Assembly (NCBI GenBank): GCA_015063605.1
Contig: SVTV01000010.1
Coordinates: 11,300 to 75,299, forward strand
Length of the DNA stretch: 64,000 nt
Direction: 5' to 3'
Source: Oscillospiraceae bacterium
GTDB lineage: Bacteria > Bacillota > Clostridia > Oscillospirales > SIG627
Part shown: positions 13,922 through 36,423 of the stretch, one piece after another
How the letters are laid out: every line of letters starts with the position of its first letter
Numbering within the stretch: position 1 is the first letter of the stretch
Notes under the pieces: model-generated
Told to the model about the DNA's origin: nothing
What the model saw: the letters and a program-made list of their open reading frames with translations, nothing else
Database searches by the model: none
Program-made: the position numbers and the translations under genes

Positions 13922-14115
13922 GGGGGCGTCGCATTAAGCGACGCCCCCGCTAAAACAGCGGACGAAAATAGGGGACGGGAACCCGCTATTTTCGGAAACT
14001 TGAACGTTTTTGGCGTGTTTTAGTACGAATTTTTACGTAATTTCGGTGCCAAAACGATGAATTTTATTCATCGAGTTCAATTTCAGGGCTTGGCTCACGT
14101 TAGTGAGACAGCCCC
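13922..14115. mobile_element. MITE-like non-coding element, copy A
   Basis: Near-identical to the reverse complement of 35312..35491; ends GGGGGCGTCGCATTAA and TTAGTGAGACAGCCCC; no transposase. Confidence 0.8.
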
Positions 14116-14134
14116 ATTTTCAGGACATATATTT

Positions 14135-29858: not shown

Positions 29859-30035
29859 ATCCAAGCCGCAGGCTTGGCATGGAATCAATGCGCTTGCGCA
29901 TTGTATGGAATCGCCAAAGGCGTATGGCATCACCGAAGGTGCATTTTCTGCGGCTTGATTACATACGCGGCTGCGCCGCAATTCCATACCGCAACAAGTT
30001 GCGGATCTCATACACGCCTACGGCGTGATTTGGAT
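29859..30035. repeat. Symmetric multi-hairpin ladder element (structured ssDNA or RNA, unassigned)
   Basis: Seven mini-hairpins separated by three GTATGGAATC-like linkers and then three reverse-complement GATTCCATAC-like linkers; ATCCAA/TTGGAT ends. Confidence 0.8.
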
Positions 30036-30051
30036 GCGAAAGGAGAATGAT

Positions 30052-30405
30052 ATGGCAAAGAATTTATTGCTTGAATATTCCGAAAAATTGGCTTGCGAAA
30101 TTGCAGCGCTTTGCAACGAGCACAAAATAGACTCCAATACCGTATATCAAATCAAAAAATCATCATCAAGTGTTTTCGCCAACATTTCCGAAGCGCAATA
30201 TCCGCAAAGTCTTGCCGATATGCTTTCAAAGTTTGAAATTGCACGAAAAGAGTGTATGGAAACAGAGAGTTGGCTAAAGTTGATATTTTCATCCGGATGT
30301 ATTGACGAGAGGACATTTAAGAAACATCGAAATCTCTGCGGCAGAATACGCAGAATGTTAACATCTTCTTGTATTACAATTGAAAACAAAATTAAGCAAG
30401 GTTGA
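30052..30405 (+). CDS. Four-helix-bundle protein (23S rRNA IVP / Avd-like fold family)
   Basis: QIKKSSSSVFANISEAQYPQSLADMLSKFEIARKECMETESWLKL; RBS AAGGAG. Confidence 0.9.
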   Translation: MAKNLLLEYSEKLACEIAALCNEHKIDSNTVYQIKKSSSSVFANISEAQYPQSLADMLSKFEIARKECMETESWLKLIFSSGCIDERTFKKHRNLCGRIRRMLTSSCITIENKIKQG

Positions 30406-30421: not shown

Positions 30422-30615
30422 AGTGGATTCGGGCTCCTGCCCGATTTCGTCGGCTGACGTCCACGCGCTATGCTTGCCCCAGACGCAAGCGTCGAGGAAA
30501 CACAAAAAAACAAGCGATACTTGATTGCCAAACAATAAATTGATAATTGACCGTTTCCACCTTAATATGATATAATGTGATCACACCGGTGATATCAATA
30601 TCTGGAGGTCAGAGC

Positions 30616-31749
30616 ATGAATATTAAGATAGGAGAAAAAATAAAGCAACTGCGACAGCGAGATGGCAGAAAACAAGAGGATTTAGCCAATGCTCTTGGAG
30701 TCAGCCCTCAGGCGGTTTCGCGTTGGGAAGCAAACGGCGGTTATCCCGATATGGAGCTGATACCTGCCATTGCTAATTATTTCAATATCAGCATTGATGA
30801 ACTATTTGGATATAGCACGGACAGACAAGAAAAATTGAGATCAATATTGGATAAGGCTGATAAGTTGCTCAACAAACAAGGTGATATGACGGAATGTGTT
30901 GAATTACTTCGTGCAGCAGCTGAAGAATTTCCATCAGAACCGCAAGTGTTGATCAAACTCGGATATGCATTAAGTATGTGTGGATGGCAAAAATACGGTG
31001 CAAAAGCCTATACTAAAGATGGTTCAGAGTATACTCATGAGGATGCGGAATATAACTCGAAAAATATATACTGGCAGGAAGAGATTCGTATCTTTGAAAA
31101 AGTTTTGACTATGGATATTTCCTCCGAGGACCGCGATGTTATCATCATGATGTTGATAATGGTTTATACCTCAATGGGAAACACAGACAAAGCAAAAGCG
31201 TTGGCATCTAATCAAAATTCAATAATCACTTGCCGTGAAACGCTTATGCCAAAAGCAACCGCAGCTGAAGAACGCGACAAATATCAAGGTGAAGCAATTA
31301 TTTCTCTTTTGACAGAATTAAGAAACGTTATTTGTGACTCCGTATGTACCAAGATTTCGCCGTCCGCAAAATCCGAGGGCGTTAAACTGTTTGTAGTTCT
31401 CGCTCACTTATATGAATCGATTTTCAGTGACGGAAGATGTGGTATTGCACATTATCATCTTTGTGAGCTTTACATGCATGCGGCAGTTTACGAAGCGCGA
31501 TTTAACAAAAATACAGACCAAGCATTTGAATATTTCAAAAAGGGATTTGAGCATAAAAAACTTTATGATTCTATTCGGTGTACAGGTGAATATGAATATT
31601 CCTCTCCTCTTGTAGCGAAAGTGACATTCCCAAGTGCGAATTTCCCGTCAGTTTCTCCAACATTTTGGAAGGGATGGATAGAAGTACTTCCTGAAGCATT
31701 TAAAGAAAGTATCAGATCAGATTCAAGATTTGCAGAGTGCTTTGAATAA
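30616..31749 (+). CDS. XRE-family HTH regulator with helical/TPR-like C-terminus
   Basis: IGEKIKQLR...QEDLANALGVSPQAVSRWE...PDMELIPAIANYF; RBS GGAGG; TTGACC-18-TATAAT at 30547-30576. Confidence 0.9.
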   Translation: MNIKIGEKIKQLRQRDGRKQEDLANALGVSPQAVSRWEANGGYPDMELIPAIANYFNISIDELFGYSTDRQEKLRSILDKADKLLNKQGDMTECVELLRAAAEEFPSEPQVLIKLGYALSMCGWQKYGAKAYTKDGSEYTHEDAEYNSKNIYWQEEIRIFEKVLTMDISSEDRDVIIMMLIMVYTSMGNTDKAKALASNQNSIITCRETLMPKATAAEERDKYQGEAIISLLTELRNVICDSVCTKISPSAKSEGVKLFVVLAHLYESIFSDGRCGIAHYHLCELYMHAAVYEARFNKNTDQAFEYFKKGFEHKKLYDSIRCTGEYEYSSPLVAKVTFPSANFPSVSPTFWKGWIEVLPEAFKESIRSDSRFAECFE

Positions 31750-31949: not shown

Positions 31950-33260
31950 TCAGTTATACAAGTACTCTAACCAATCAGATTTTAATTCTTCATAACCTTT
32001 CCCAAATGTTGCCATGATATCCTTTGAGTGATAAGCGCTGAGCACCTCTTCAATACCGTAGGTGTCTACAAGATAAAGAACAAGAGAAGCCGCTTGATTA
32101 TATGAAAGTTCGACTCCAACACCATCATAATTTTTTCCGTTAACAAGCTTGTAGGTATTGCCAATCGTATTATAAAAGTCAGTTTCCAATTCAGCTTTCG
32201 CATACAGATCTGTATACAAGGGAAGATCAAATGTGCCGACAAGATCAAATTTGCCGCCAAGAGCTATATAATCTTCGTATACATTTTTGCAGATAATTGC
32301 TGATTTATCTCCCGCAGCGGCATACTCATCGAAATAGCCTTGCCTTGCAACATTCATAATTTGAATATACGATGCTGCAATCTGATTGTTAAATCCGAGG
32401 GTCTTTCCGAAGTACTCACATAGACCTTCGCTCAACCAAATATTGCCGTTCTCTCGGATACCTAACGCGTGCACCGATTCGTGAAGAGCACTTGAAAAAT
32501 CATTGATGTACATATTTCCGGAAGGATACCGTGTTTGAGAATATCCGCTGCCGTCGAAGAGCATATAATAATGAAACTCTCGGTTGGTATCAAGTCCTTC
32601 GTTTAATTCGTTTTTTTCGAGATGGTCGAGCATTTTATAAAGCCCCGCGGTATTGAAGTACAGAAGTCCGTGATATTGTGTCGGACTACCGGCACTAAAA
32701 TCCTTGAAATAGTATGTTACATTATCAAAGGATATAATGTATTTATACGTTGCATCAGAGGAAAAATCCATCGAAGCAAGTAAGACTTCCGCTTCCGGGG
32801 CATTAGTGTATTCTGTCTCCAAACCAAGTGATTTAAGATATTCACTCTTATATTCGCACCGCTTCTCTAAATTCAGCAACCCTTCTGCACCGTATTTATC
32901 ATAAACAAAAGCAAACAATGCTTCTGCTACCGGGACAGATTTTGTTTTGTCGTATGTAAATAAGTGATCGTACAACGTGAGATAAGTCATATTAGCGAGA
33001 TCGGAGAAAAACTCTTTTAGGTTTGCCACTTGCTTTCCACTTTCATACGCAGTAAGACCGTAGGTGATCCACTCTTCTCCGCTTGAGCGGAGCGATGCAA
33101 AAGGATCTTCCGGCTTTTCGGTGGATGTATCAGTCGAACTATCCAAAGTCGGCGGTTCAGTGTCCTGCGGCAAATCGGGTGAGTCAGTACATGAAACGAG
33201 CAACATTGCCATCAGCAAGAGAAATGCTATAAAAGAAATTTTAGTTTTCATTGGCTTCAC
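31950..33260 (-). CDS. Lipoprotein zinc metallopeptidase (gluzincin / peptidase MA-like)
   Basis: Lipobox LVSC; HESVH followed by WLSEGLCEYF; C-terminal YNQAASLVLYLVDTYG. Start is 33260 or 33251. Confidence 0.75.
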   Translation of the reverse strand: MKPMKTKISFIAFLLLMAMLLVSCTDSPDLPQDTEPPTLDSSTDTSTEKPEDPFASLRSSGEEWITYGLTAYESGKQVANLKEFFSDLANMTYLTLYDHLFTYDKTKSVPVAEALFAFVYDKYGAEGLLNLEKRCEYKSEYLKSLGLETEYTNAPEAEVLLASMDFSSDATYKYIISFDNVTYYFKDFSAGSPTQYHGLLYFNTAGLYKMLDHLEKNELNEGLDTNREFHYYMLFDGSGYSQTRYPSGNMYINDFSSALHESVHALGIRENGNIWLSEGLCEYFGKTLGFNNQIAASYIQIMNVARQGYFDEYAAAGDKSAIICKNVYEDYIALGGKFDLVGTFDLPLYTDLYAKAELETDFYNTIGNTYKLVNGKNYDGVGVELSYNQAASLVLYLVDTYGIEEVLSAYHSKDIMATFGKGYEELKSDWLEYLYN

Positions 33261-34323
33261 CTCTCTTTTGAAAAAAATATTCCTCGTATCTGTTTTTGAG
33301 AGCTGAAATTTTATCCTTGAAGATCTCCAACTCCGGAGCGCTTACTATATATTGCAAAAAATCTTGGCATAGCTCTTCGGGTGAAAAGGCGTTGCGCAAC
33401 GTCGTGGAGTACAGAAGCGGAGATGTGTTTTCTTTTTCGGATTCTATCATATGTTTTTCCAGCATATCAACAATCCGGTTTATATATTCCTCTGCCGTAT
33501 CCGTTTGCCCAAGCTGAACATATATCTTTGCGATCGAGGCATAGTCGTAAAGAAGCGGCGGATCGTAAAAACCTGCGTACTTACCATCCAGCACCGCCTC
33601 ATACAAAGCCGCGGCTCTTTTATAGTAAAACAGCTTTTCCTCAGAGGACATATCTTCGGTGATAAGCTGCCGCACACAGCATTCTGCGCCGTCAATTTCA
33701 TAAATCAGATTGCGTTTTATCTGTGCGAGGTATTCCTCGCCTTCCATTACAAATTTAGCATACACCTCACGGCTATGACGCAAGGATGGCAATTTTTTGT
33801 AATAATATTTTCCTTTTTCTTTGATGGCAGGATCTTTTGATTCGGAACAAAGCTGAAGCATGATTCGGTAGATCTCATTACGTTTGTCATCGTCCATGCA
33901 ACACTTTTCCGCATGCTCTGCAAGAGATATCATTTTTTCAACCCGATCTTTGTCATAAAGCTTTTTGCGGTATACATGAAGCATTACGCCGGCATAATTT
34001 CCGTAGTGATCGGGATTCAACTCTATTTCACAGATCCAAGCTTGATATACACCCTCCCAATCCTTTTTTGCGTGGAGAGCATGAATTTTCTCGCCAAATT
34101 CTTTTCGATGTTCAATGCTCCACACCAATTCCATATCGAACAAGGAATCAATAGAGCATTTAAAAAGCAATGCTATTTTGGGCAGGAGTGCTATATCGGG
34201 AGACAGTAATCCTCGTTCCCATTTTGAGACGGTTTGTGAAGAAACGCCGAGCTGTTCCGCAACAGCTTCCTGTGTCATATTGCGTGCGGTACGTAATTCC
34301 TTTAATTTGTTTTTGAGTTCCAT
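33241..34323 (-). CDS. XRE-family HTH regulator with TPR-like C-terminus
   Basis: LKELRTARNMTQEAVAEQLGVSSQTVSKWERG..PDIALLPKIA. Confidence 0.9.
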   Translation of the reverse strand: MELKNKLKELRTARNMTQEAVAEQLGVSSQTVSKWERGLLSPDIALLPKIALLFKCSIDSLFDMELVWSIEHRKEFGEKIHALHAKKDWEGVYQAWICEIELNPDHYGNYAGVMLHVYRKKLYDKDRVEKMISLAEHAEKCCMDDDKRNEIYRIMLQLCSESKDPAIKEKGKYYYKKLPSLRHSREVYAKFVMEGEEYLAQIKRNLIYEIDGAECCVRQLITEDMSSEEKLFYYKRAAALYEAVLDGKYAGFYDPPLLYDYASIAKIYVQLGQTDTAEEYINRIVDMLEKHMIESEKENTSPLLYSTTLRNAFSPEELCQDFLQYIVSAPELEIFKDKISALKNRYEEYFFQKRGEANEN

Positions 34324-34328
34324 AATTT

Positions 34329-34877
34329 TTACATCTTATTTTTCATCCAATAATCGTACTGCTTTTTTCTATACATTAAAAGAAAAAAGATATATGCGAC
34401 ACAGTTCGCAACGGCACTCAACACATACCCTGCAGTATATCCGACAAAACTCACATCAAACACCGTACTGAACAAACACATGGGTGCAAAAAAGAAAGTG
34501 ATAAGCGATATTGTTTTTTTCTTAAACACTAAATCATCAAAGGTATTCAATGCAAAGCAGATAAAAACGATCACAGCAATACAGATAAGAATTTTGGATT
34601 CGCGCTTTAAAACCAACTTAAAATCATCTGCAAAAGAAACGTACTGCTTGCCTTCGTAATCCGAAACGATCTCATCTTCACCGACGCCTTTTCTGATTTT
34701 TGATGTATGCAGTAAAATATATCCGAACGCAACCGTTGTCATCAGCGCAATTACAAACAGTTTCAAAGTGGGATTCTCAACCCCGCTTAAGACAGCACCC
34801 CAAACCGCATATAGTGCAATATATGCAATCAAAGTAATAATTGACGAAAAAGTAATATTCCAAAGTATCCGTTTCAT
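34329..34877 (-). CDS. Hypothetical membrane protein (4-5 TM)
   Basis: Hydrophobic segments; RBS GGAGG; first gene of a three-gene operon. Confidence 0.75.
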   Translation of the reverse strand: MKRILWNITFSSIITLIAYIALYAVWGAVLSGVENPTLKLFVIALMTTVAFGYILLHTSKIRKGVGEDEIVSDYEGKQYVSFADDFKLVLKRESKILICIAVIVFICFALNTFDDLVFKKKTISLITFFFAPMCLFSTVFDVSFVGYTAGYVLSAVANCVAYIFFLLMYRKKQYDYWMKNKM

Positions 34878-34914
34878 AATTCCCTCCGTAAATTTTCAGT
34901 AAATTTTTCATATC

Positions 34915-35211
34915 ATAACAGCAGTTGGAAAATTGTGCGTACAGATGCACAATTTTGTTAAGCGCATGTTTTTGTACGCACTGCAGATTATAACAGCAGT
35001 TGGAAAATTGTGCGTACAAACGCACAATTTTGTTAAGCGCATGTTTTTGTACGCACTGCAGATTATAACAGCAGTTGGAAAATTGTGCGTACAGACGCAC
35101 AATTTTGTTAAACGCATGTTTTTGTACGCACTGCAGATTATAACAGCAGTTGGAAAATTGTGCGTACAGACGCACAATTTTGTTAAGCGCATGTTTTTGT
35201 ACGCACTGCAG
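34915..35211. repeat. Tandem array of four 75-bp units (last unit 72 bp)
   Basis: Units start at 34915, 34990, 35065 and 35140: ATAACAGCAGTTGGAAAATTGTGCGTACAGACGCACAATTTTGTTAAGCGCATGTTTTTGTACGCACTGCAGATT; at most one substitution per unit; no spacers. Confidence 0.97.
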
Positions 35212-35223
35212 TTGTTTGCGCTT

Positions 35224-35252
35224 ATTATATCACAAATCATTTTGGGTGTAAA
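35224..35252 (-). promoter_or_regulatory. Sigma-A promoter pointing into the 75-bp array
   Basis: Minus strand reads TTTACA-17-TATAAT with TG extension. Confidence 0.7.
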
Positions 35253-35311
35253 TAGACAATTTAGCTCACGGTTATGTCTGTTTTGTATCAGAACAAAATG
35301 GCATCATTTCT

Positions 35312-35491
35312 GGGGCTGTCTCACTAACGTGAGCCAAGCCCTGAAATTGAACTCGATGAATAAAATTCATCGTTTTGGCACCGAAATTACGTAAAAATTC
35401 GTACTAAAGCACGCCAAAAACGTTCAAGTTTCCGAAAATAGCGGGTTCCCGTCCGCTATTTTCGCGGGGCGTCGCTTAATGCGACAGCCCC
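35312..35491. mobile_element. MITE-like non-coding element, copy B (inverted relative to copy A)
   Basis: 180 bp; terminal IRs GGGGCTGTCTCACTAA and GGGGCTGTCGCATTAA (14/16). Confidence 0.82.
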
Positions 35492-35610: not shown

Positions 35611-36423
35611 ATGATTAAACTTGGAGAAAAAATAAAATCGTTAAGAAAACAGAAGAATATATCCCAAGAGGTTTTTGCTAACTATCTTGGCGTATCCTTT
35701 CAAGCCGTTTCGAAATGGGAAACGGGTAACACAATGCCGGATGTGACTATGATCCCCGCAATCGCTTCCTTTTTCGGCGTTTCAACAGATGAGCTTTTCG
35801 ATTTCAATCTTTACGAAATTGAGAAAAATGTTGAAGCAATCGTAGATGAACACAGTAAATATTGGTATGAGGACAAATCCAAAGCAGAGCAAATTATCCG
35901 AGATGGGTTGAAACGATATCCCGGAAATGATGTGTTGTTAAATTGTTTGATTGGCGTTATTTCGGAATTGGGAAAAAACGATGAAGTCATTACTATTGGA
36001 AAAGCTCTTGTAGAAAGCACGAAATATGATGATGTGCGTATGGATGCATATCGTATTATGGCAGAAGCATATAAAGCAAAGGGCGAATATGAATTGGCTA
36101 AAGATGCAATTGAACATATTCCGGAAATTTACTTCACAAAGCTTGGGGTAGCTGCTCGACTTCTTGAAGGAGAAGAAATGTATGAGGCGGCACAAAAGCA
36201 AAAGAATATTTCCGCAGAGGACTTGATCGATATGCTGATCATTGCAGGTAAGCGTTTAAAAGAAAACGGCGAAATCGAAAAAGCCAATTCTCAATTTAGG
36301 ATCGCACTAAAAGTAATGGATGCTTTTAAAGATGATTTTATTGAAAGCAAATGGTTTAAAGCTACCGTTTATGAGTACGCAAACGAACAACGAAAAGAAA
36401 TTGAAAAGCTGTTAAGCGAATAA
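35611..36423 (+). CDS. XRE-family HTH regulator with TPR-like C-terminus
   Basis: LGEKIKSLRKQKNISQEVFANYLGVSFQAVSKWETG..MPDV; RBS GGAGG; TGCTATAAT upstream. Confidence 0.9.
   Translation: MIKLGEKIKSLRKQKNISQEVFANYLGVSFQAVSKWETGNTMPDVTMIPAIASFFGVSTDELFDFNLYEIEKNVEAIVDEHSKYWYEDKSKAEQIIRDGLKRYPGNDVLLNCLIGVISELGKNDEVITIGKALVESTKYDDVRMDAYRIMAEAYKAKGEYELAKDAIEHIPEIYFTKLGVAARLLEGEEMYEAAQKQKNISAEDLIDMLIIAGKRLKENGEIEKANSQFRIALKVMDAFKDDFIESKWFKATVYEYANEQRKEIEKLLSE

Follow-up and report, generated by a model that had tools for sequence, protein, structure and literature searches.

A fourfold array upstream of an Oscillospiraceae operon is a local amplification of a genome-wide repeat found at predicted promoters

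We analysed a stretch of 64,000 nucleotides from an Oscillospiraceae bacterium (assembly GCA_015063605.1, contig SVTV01000010.1, positions 11,300 to 75,299 of the forward strand, or C56:11300-75299 in assembly numbering), hereafter the window, in which four near-identical 75-nt units lie head-to-tail just upstream of an operon whose first two genes encode a hydrophobic protein and an XRE-type regulator. This fourfold array is a local amplification of a repeat of ∼92 bases that stands at about 28 promoters of the same genome, so that it is a genome-wide, promoter-linked repeat rather than a switch reserved for the regulator genes beside the array. The interpretation that we favour, with a probability of roughly 0.6, is that the array is an instance of a promoter-linked repeat, of the "mobile promoter" kind, that has spread recently and was amplified in place at this locus.

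Dispersed promoter-bearing repeats are known, with little settled so far about the movement and the role of "mobile promoters". With ∼28 loci in one small genome, the family provides a clean case for them, combining -10-box boundaries, a fixed polarity, a compensated hairpin, copies of very recent origin and probable variation in copy number among strains. It opens the questions of whether insertion targets promoters or is just tolerated there and of whether the number of units in a leader tunes expression.

The array belongs to a genome-wide repeat family

Tandem Repeats Finder placed the array at 34915-35211 (period 75, 4.0 copies, 97% matches, no indels) with a score of 573, the runner-up among the 35 rows for the window scoring 66, which confirms the four units described in an initial annotation of this DNA. 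The 75-nt spacing was also seen, in four registers, in a repeat search of the array, and the units are mutually 97.2-98.6% alike.

A single unit searched against its own assembly (2.67 Mb, 61 contigs, 96% complete) by BLAST gave 40 matches on 17 contigs, at many loci with 81-92% identity over 61-72 nt. Three rounds of nhmmer on the genome returned 37, 49 and 57 matches; once antisense matches that covered the palindrome alone had been removed, the family consisted of 49 non-overlapping copies at 28 loci, with one copy at 17 loci, two at five, three at three, four at two and five at one. At the multi-copy loci, the copies are stacked head-to-tail, usually with a period of ∼92 nt. A covariance model built from 21 full copies (R1) found 43 matches in the same genome. 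Four loci (on contigs C5, C10, C30, and C40) lie within 300 nt of a contig end, indicating that the repeat breaks the assembly, and the true copy number probably exceeds 49. All comparisons within the family are made between paralogous copies of one genome.

A full unit opens with TGATATAAT, followed by an AAGCGCA arm, its partner TGCGCTT ∼25 nt further on (stem S1) and a 12-bp hairpin (S2), and it ends ∼13 nt past S2, at the start of the next TGATATAAT. Each unit is thus bounded by the same direct repeat of ∼12-13 nt, the -10 box. The features of the array in the window are the following.

35247..35252, minus strand: -35-like hexamer TTTACA of the distal promoter P1, in unique DNA outside the repeat (consensus scan)
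35224..35232, minus strand: extended -10 TGATATAAT of P1, the first 9 nt of the distal unit
35139..35232, minus strand: distal unit, full length, profile positions 1-94 (nhmmer match C56:46438-46531, E 4.1e-27)
35064..35137, minus strand: second unit, 75-nt form (nhmmer match, profile positions 21-94)
34989..35062, minus strand: third unit, 75-nt form (nhmmer match, profile positions 21-94)
34913..34987, minus strand: fourth (proximal) unit, 75-nt form, terminating in a degenerate TGTTATGAT (nhmmer match, profile positions 21-95)
35154..35181, no strand: S2 hairpin or palindrome of the distal unit, arms of 12 nt, loop of 4 nt
35079-35106 and 35004-35031, no strand: S2 palindrome of further units, arms of 12 nt and 100% complementary, loop of 4 nt
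34929-34956, no strand: S2 palindrome of unit 1, perfect arms of only 10 nt owing to one substitution
35137..35145, 35062-35070, and 34987-34995, minus strand: junction TGTTATAAT, extended -10-like, with no -35 (sequence read)
34882-34887 and 34875-34877, minus strand: Shine-Dalgarno sequence GGAGGG and ATG of the first operon gene (sequence read, open reading frame)

The distal unit is the only complete unit of the window array. The three inner ones lack profile positions 1-20 and, with them, the 5' arm of S1 and most of the -10 motif, and the window units can be described as the ∼92-nt repeat shortened by 17 nt. The junction motif reads ATTATAACA on the plus strand, equivalent to TGTTATAAT on the minus strand, and a reading of the sequence placed the minus-strand -10 hexamers of the junctions where the initial annotation had put them; the degenerate junction is ATCATAACA at 34912-34920, or TGTTATGAT on the minus strand.

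The units are contiguous, without the unique spacers that separate the repeats of a CRISPR (clustered regularly interspaced short palindromic repeats) array, and the earlier statement that this is not CRISPR holds. The 16 inverted-repeat pairs found in 34800-35400 comprise the hairpin, a competing pairing and two flank pairs, and none of them joins the unit ends, so that the terminal inverted repeats of a classical miniature inverted-repeat transposable element (MITE) are absent; the unit ends are direct repeats of the -10 box. An Rfam scan of the array gave three matches at E<=1, every one well short of its gathering score, the best with 27 bits against 45 (E 0.29). The array is also crossed by open reading frames (ORFs) of 110, 132 and 153 aa (34777-35394, both strands), artefacts that arise because 75 is divisible by 3. 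We also considered a coding role for a 19-codon ATG frame within the unit and rejected it, the frame having no Shine-Dalgarno sequence and ACG replacing ATG in some copies.

The family also includes diverged sub-families. C10:109-176 and C40:107-178, both at contig ends, have in common a longer composite repeat around a copy with a differing hairpin-arm sequence. At C23:4238-4658, upstream of a class-V aminotransferase gene, five copies are partial, extending over profile positions 1-61 only, and after each comes a complementary hairpin of its own, unlike the others.

Recent dispersal and local amplification

The copies at C2:39038, C5:260, C7:25694, and C35:12547/12639 are 96.8-98.9% identical over 93-94 nt (nine pairs), while their 60-nt flanks align at 45-67%, a figure that has no background to set it against, although the flanks are visibly different. 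Near-identical copies in unrelated flanks are the mark of recent dispersal and not of segmental duplication. Copies of one array share a median identity of 94.7% (31 pairs), copies of different loci one of 78.6% (964 pairs), from which it follows that arrays grow locally.

Relative to the 92-nt form, the 75-nt form has lost 17 nt around the junction, which leaves TGTTATAAT; this re-creation of the motif may be partly automatic, given that the box has a short internal TAT repeat. We propose that a single inserted unit at the window locus would have undergone this shortening and would then have been amplified in tandem.

A 1.2-kb stretch around the array is partly present in 20 public sequencing runs from 15 studies, all of animal gut or faeces except for one labelled skin, and we compared contigs of four runs with it. 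The contig from run X1 (490 nt, depth ∼4, three other letters) joins 34914 to 35140, omitting 225 nt, or exactly 3 units, and a one-unit allele probably exists. A contig from run X4, an independent study, covers a junction of the 75-nt type at 35032-35094, and the multi-unit form is therefore not an artefact of this assembly. The concern that the array might be an assembly artefact is in this way answered for the junction, with the single unit of X1 standing beside it. Copy number probably differs between strains and could modulate expression, by analogy with the boxB modules of the pneumococcal BOX element.

A predicted promoter at the distal end of the array

The consensus scan found P1 at 35252..35224 of the minus strand as TTTACA-17-TATAAT with a TG before the -10 (11/12 matches), so the promoter named in the initial annotation is there, and the array lies between it and the ribosome-binding site of the operon. 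Judged from its sequence, P1 would start transcription at about 35217, 7 nt after the hexamer, and the predicted leader is ∼340 nt long. In our proposal, the distal -10 and the flanking native -35 would together form the working promoter of the operon, and the units would be transcribed as a structured 5' leader, with four hairpins at the window locus. The internal TGTTATAAT sites were not listed as promoters by the same scan because they have no -35 at 16-18 nt, and within the array only weak TTAACA-18-CACAAT sites were listed.

The same arrangement recurs over the family. A -10 stands at the start of the first copy at 24/28 loci, with TG at -15/-14 in 21 of these 24, and a -35-like hexamer (at least 4/6 of TTGACA) lies 16-18 nt upstream of the distal -10 at 15/24 loci, six of them with a perfect TTGACA; the background for this -35 measure is 23% of all 3625 TATAAT of the genome. 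The spacer sequences between the -35 and the element vary by locus, and the -35 is therefore not part of the repeat. Going by this consensus, the element is a candidate promoter.

The distal 9-mer is a perfect TGATATAAT at 18 of the 22 measurable loci and the proximal 9-mer, past the last copy, at 2/21, its usual score being 7-8/9, a comparison biased by the fact that the distal 9-mer lies inside the search profile and by the omission of six loci where the first copy matches from a later profile position onwards. With that bias in mind, the proximal box drifts about as fast as the unit does elsewhere, for which the median between loci is 78.6% identity, and in the four youngest copies the proximal box scores 9, 9, 8 and 8 of 9. 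The pattern speaks for the distal promoter being the working one, with the inner boxes not needed, and the earlier suggestion that every unit is a working promoter finds no support at the level of the family.

Position of the repeat relative to genes

By our own crude ORF rules, which are no annotation, the element lies between divergent genes at 12 of the 24 loci with both flanks assessable, between tandem co-directional genes at 10 and antisense at 2 (C7 and C48), with no locus convergent; adding two loci where the downstream flank only could be assessed, it is directed at the next gene at 24/26 loci. At 23/28 loci, an ORF on the same strand, 60 aa or longer and with a Shine-Dalgarno-like motif, begins 10-212 nt past the last copy; the distance from the last copy to the start codon is that of a short, ordinary leader. 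Some ORFs start within the element and add an N-terminal extension to real genes (at C13:21948, for example, 296 aa instead of 259 aa); they are traps for automatic annotation.

The downstream genes are unrelated to each other. Among 20 downstream proteins scanned, 14 fell into different Pfam families and 6 into none; the families are PALP (a pyridoxal phosphate enzyme), DUF2809, AAA_14/DUF4143, rhamnosidase, ABC ATPase, MFS, NUDIX, Aminotran_5, SSF, an ECF-sigma fusion, FNT, DUF4358, His_Phos_1 and a response regulator. XRE genes stand directly downstream at the window locus only, of the 28 loci. This bears on one of the two explanations offered in the initial annotation, an amplifier of promoter/operator sites specific to this locus, by which the neighbouring XRE proteins would be titrated. 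Its local anatomy fits, but the unit occurs at 27 other loci before unrelated genes, and both the locus-specific device and the titration have become very improbable.

Two orphan copies have a different surrounding. The one at C7:25694-25788 runs antisense to the genes on either side, with a bidirectional terminator hairpin no more than about 15 nt after it, and the one at C1:35410-35503 shows a perfect TTGACA-17-TGATATAAT promoter, the element, ∼130 nt, a strong terminator and then the next gene. Either copy could give a small RNA.

The hairpins are kept as structure

Both stems are maintained across the family. S2 has 407/449 Watson-Crick cells and double changes at 5 of its 12 pairs (47 distinct rows), and S1 has 257/301 with one covarying pair (AT 29, GC 8); for each stem, 0/500 shuffles matched the observed pairing or the double-change count, counts that are not probabilities, the copies being related. 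On the 21 full copies, S2 was 93.7% paired compared to 12-55% when slid, with 5 pairs changed on both sides and none of 500 shuffles reaching this. In C10/C40, C23, C32:112k, and C45 the arms are altered yet still complementary. These stems were named individually because RNAalifold on the profile alignment, in which loop columns were misaligned, gave poor consensus structures.

The other pairings proposed in the initial annotation fared less well. The palindrome has perfect 12-nt arms in three units of the window, as claimed, and an imperfect 10-nt form in unit 1. The outer GCAG/CUGC stem (S3) is weakly supported in the family, 39/500 shuffles reaching its pairing. The competing pairing, GTGCGTACAAA/TTTGTACGCAC, was found in the window units by the inverted-repeat search but has no covariation support, with 312/500 shuffles reaching it, and its perfect 9-bp form is confined to the window copies because of substitutions private to this array. 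A small stem specific to the window is likewise unsupported (296/500 shuffles). The private substitutions (34913-35232, minus strand) lie after the CTGCAG motif and in the hairpin loop, and they also allow the 3' arm of S1, left without its partner, to form a local stem of 5 bp; the resulting pairings may compensate for the deleted 5' arm of S1 or may be due to chance.

Complementary change in the arms is difficult to reconcile with a DNA operator array, in which the palindrome would bind a dimeric regulator, possibly of the XRE type, each unit would be a regulated promoter and the family a regulon, since a single sequence-specific protein needs no such thing. Class II activators replace a -35 from the -41.5/-42.5 position, and the palindrome, at -24 to -51 of each following -10, would have its centre ∼42 nt ahead of the predicted start that belongs to the next -10. 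The TG-extended junction boxes without a -35, the highly conserved outer half-sites and the presence of three XRE genes within 6 kb also favour an operator. However, the proximal -10 that it would serve is rarely perfect, as described above, the downstream genes have no common theme and XRE genes follow directly at the window locus alone, and we consider an operator unlikely.

Folded as RNA, the leader of the window on the minus strand reaches -110 kcal/mol (z -5.0, with 0/100 shuffles as stable), compared to a z of -2.4 for the opposite strand. An RNA that begins after the -10 box and terminates, completely or in part, at the 12-bp hairpin and its UUUU, so that read-through sets gene expression and arrays multiply the effect, would make the unit an attenuator or a source of small RNA. 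Four U follow the hairpin on the transcribed strand, and the C7 and C1 elements lead to a separate terminator, not to a gene, and would there give a short RNA. Against this, the four U belong to the stem and there is no U-rich tail, whereas an intrinsic terminator has a G+C-rich stem with such a tail, and the terminator scan listed none of the four hairpins of the window. Attenuation is a somewhat weaker candidate than the operator.

Points that weigh against a mobile promoter

Several observations count against our interpretation, in addition to the two biases in the comparison of the boxes, the crude gene positions and the antisense loci C7 and C48 given above. The -35 match is 3/6 or less at 9/24 loci. 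We infer promoter use, start sites and leader length across the family from sequence; a metatranscriptome run (X19) placed nothing on the 1.2-kb stretch, and other RNA-labelled runs contained 0.05-0.08 of the sampled words. The one-unit contig of X1 could be a repeat collapsed by a k-mer assembler at depth 4.

The remaining points concern the hairpins. The covarying copies are partly kin, four of them in one array, which leaves fewer independent events. G-U and A-C cells are similar in number (12 vs 14 in S2, 6 vs 11 in S1), and with no strand asymmetry of this kind the hairpin might be active as DNA just as well as RNA. An RNA begun at the unit's own promoter would lack the 5' arm of S1, which falls between the -10 and the start that we predict; from that start, the RNA contains S2 alone and has an unremarkable stability (z -1.3, 22/200 shuffles). 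The whole unit as single-stranded DNA, by comparison, folds S1 and S2 on either strand with a z of -3.9 (0/200 shuffles).

This last result is what a non-autonomous selfish element might show that homes to -10 boxes through single-stranded DNA or short-homology recombination. Such an element would integrate at TGATATAAT-like sequences and regenerate its target at the far end, and the placement at promoters, the orientation and the arrays would be by-products of target choice with no function for the host. The unit has no terminal inverted repeats, is bounded by the direct repeat of the -10 box and keeps its two hairpins by structure and not by sequence; the -35 and the distal box stand at the correct spacing, and what follows the proximal box has the length of an ordinary leader. 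Targets would be plentiful, TGATATAAT occurring at 198 sites of the genome, 173 of them outside element loci, and the near-identical copies in unrelated flanks include the C7 copy, antisense, not at a promoter and beside a terminator. On the other side, no mobilising enzyme was identified, the sole Y1 transposase gene having unlike end hairpins, the one genome of the same genus is too diverged and differently arranged to give a view of an empty site, and local duplication equally explains the higher likeness within arrays. The near-perfect proximal boxes of the youngest copies fit decay with age better than the capture of variable native targets. We regard the selfish element as the strongest of the alternatives and yet as improbable overall.

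Its most specific form, a new small mobile element that homes precisely to extended -10 boxes (TGATATAAT in resident promoters), is a little more doubtful again. If true, such an element would set its own perfect -10 at the spacing of the native -35 and shift the native -10 ∼92 nt downstream, the regenerated target letting copies stack. It would probably move through a single-stranded hairpin intermediate with an enzyme yet to be identified, and it would offer a concrete mechanism for promoter propagation and leader lengthening in bacteria.

Comparison with known systems

Putative mobile promoters (PMPs) were reportedly introduced by Matus-Garcia, Nijveen and van Passel in 2012. They are defined by at least 80% identity over at least 50 nt between upstream regions of one genome, within -150 to -50 from the start codon and mostly without a -10, and their families are mostly pairs whose mode of movement is unknown (PMC3575422). 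The repeat family of the window is alike in being a highly similar non-coding sequence before non-paralogous genes, with no match to a known RNA family or insertion sequence and no known way of moving; its identity of 81-92% over 61-72 nt at many loci, its unrelated flanks and the different Pfam families of its downstream proteins agree with the definition, while the overall median between loci is 78.6% and its action as a promoter is predicted from consensus. PMPs are the closest concept in print. The family differs from them in its size of 28 loci, in having the -10 box as repeat boundary, in its head-to-tail arrays and in hairpins that are kept as structure.

Palindrome-associated transposable elements (PATEs), derived from IS200/IS605, have no inverted termini, have hairpins near their ends that are conserved in structure and keep a fixed polarity to a short specific flanking sequence, next to which they insert without duplicating it. 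The hairpins near the ends of our unit are also conserved as structure, S1 and S2 each beating 500/500 shuffles, whereas a cognate transposase was not found in the assembly, where the sole Y1 gene has unrelated hairpins. PATE-like target use and a single-stranded intermediate are conjecture for the window family.

In type III toxin-antitoxin systems, the antitoxin ToxI is encoded as a tandem non-coding array just upstream of a gene, and the second explanation of the initial annotation was a processed repeat RNA acting in a like manner. The window array is also tandem, non-coding and directly upstream of a small gene. However, a search of Pfam and NCBIfam found no ToxN/AbiQ-type endoribonuclease directly after the array, the 182-aa product there being hydrophobic and without a family, and the scan listed no terminator-like site between the array and the gene, from 34878 to 34912. 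With a unit of 75/92 nt dispersed over 28 loci and no Rfam match above the gathering score, an antitoxin-like RNA is hardly credible.

The pneumococcal BOX element is a composite, boxA-boxB(n)-boxC, with terminal inverted repeats and three types of module, of which boxB alone is repeated; the number of modules varies between strains, and the element is reported to raise or lower downstream expression (PMC3049150). The window family resembles BOX as a small dispersed Gram-positive repeat with a variable tandem module and predicted stem-loops when transcribed; in a comparison of layout only, it differs in repeating the whole unit, in the absence of terminal inverted repeats and in the -10 box of each unit. 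Correia elements of Neisseria are MITE-type repeats with inverted termini and a promoter that can form at either end, whose RNA hairpin consists of the paired terminal repeats and is cut by RNase III (PMC3049150, PMC2649163, PMC3575422). Both are dispersed small repeats that can create promoters beside genes and that form RNA hairpins in co-transcripts, and the window family is set apart by its lack of inverted termini, its fixed orientation and its tandem arrays.

Search for other carriers

BLAST found no element in 40 relatives (1 of the same genus, 23 of the same family and 16 of the same order), and the covariance model applied to 50 genomes of the family gave one marginal match, in G017 (26.5 bits, E 0.004), which we treated as chance. 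Two exact core patterns had 0 matches in species-representative genomes and in JGI metagenome contigs, and the second pattern had 0 in viral contigs, scans that see identical cores only and could miss diverged relatives. The full unit gave nothing by BLAST against plasmids and phages. From these searches, the family appears to be restricted to this species. In the genome of the same genus (G001), orthologues of two downstream genes are present with 62% and 78% identity, in a different upstream context and without the element.

The assembly contains a single IS200-like Y1 transposase gene (PF01797 match at C7:18412-18768, 141.9 bits), flanked on both sides by hairpins with a 9-bp stem and 7 kb from a copy of the element. 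A link between the element and this transposon was considered and rejected, the hairpin sequences being unlike those of the element; at 96% completeness, a second Y1 gene could be missing from the assembly.

Genes and other repeats around the array

The operon that follows the array comprises the following genes.

34329..34877, minus strand: 182-aa hydrophobic protein, the first gene past the array (0 Pfam and 0 NCBIfam families)
33241..34323, minus strand: 360-aa XRE-type HTH protein with a weak TPR-like C-terminal part (Pfam HTH_3, E 9.1e-17; TPR below the cut-off)
31950..33260, minus strand: 436-aa putative lipoprotein with an HExxH motif (motif read from the translation; no Pfam or NCBIfam family)

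The last of these had been labelled a peptidase; the HExxH motif can be read in its translation, and the label has no Pfam or NCBIfam family behind it. Its N-terminus is signal-peptide-like, and two ORFs of 436/437 aa upstream of the element on C42 have N-termini that resemble it.

Three XRE-type HTH proteins of 270-390 aa are encoded within 6 kb, at 30577-31749 (plus strand), 33241-34323 (minus strand) and 35611-36423 (plus strand), all with weak TPR-like C-terminal matches, a layout that may point to peptide-sensing regulators. The XRE-TPR gene had no match at E 1e-20 or better among the 12 relatives searched. A 126-aa "23S rRNA intervening sequence protein" (PF05635, E 1.2e-18) at 30025-30405 (plus strand) adjoins this cluster.

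Between the array promoter and the divergent XRE gene, at 35312-35491, lies an unrelated MITE-like repeat of ∼180 nt with inverted termini (GGGGCTGTC.../...GACAGCCCC). Another copy stands at about 13923-14116 of the window, and BLAST found 45 pieces in the same genome, roughly 20 of them near-full copies and about 10 short forms that retain just both ends. The X1 contig has 17 other letters in place of 35312-35491, and in run X4 the depth over this repeat is 150-320 compared to ∼4 for its flanks.

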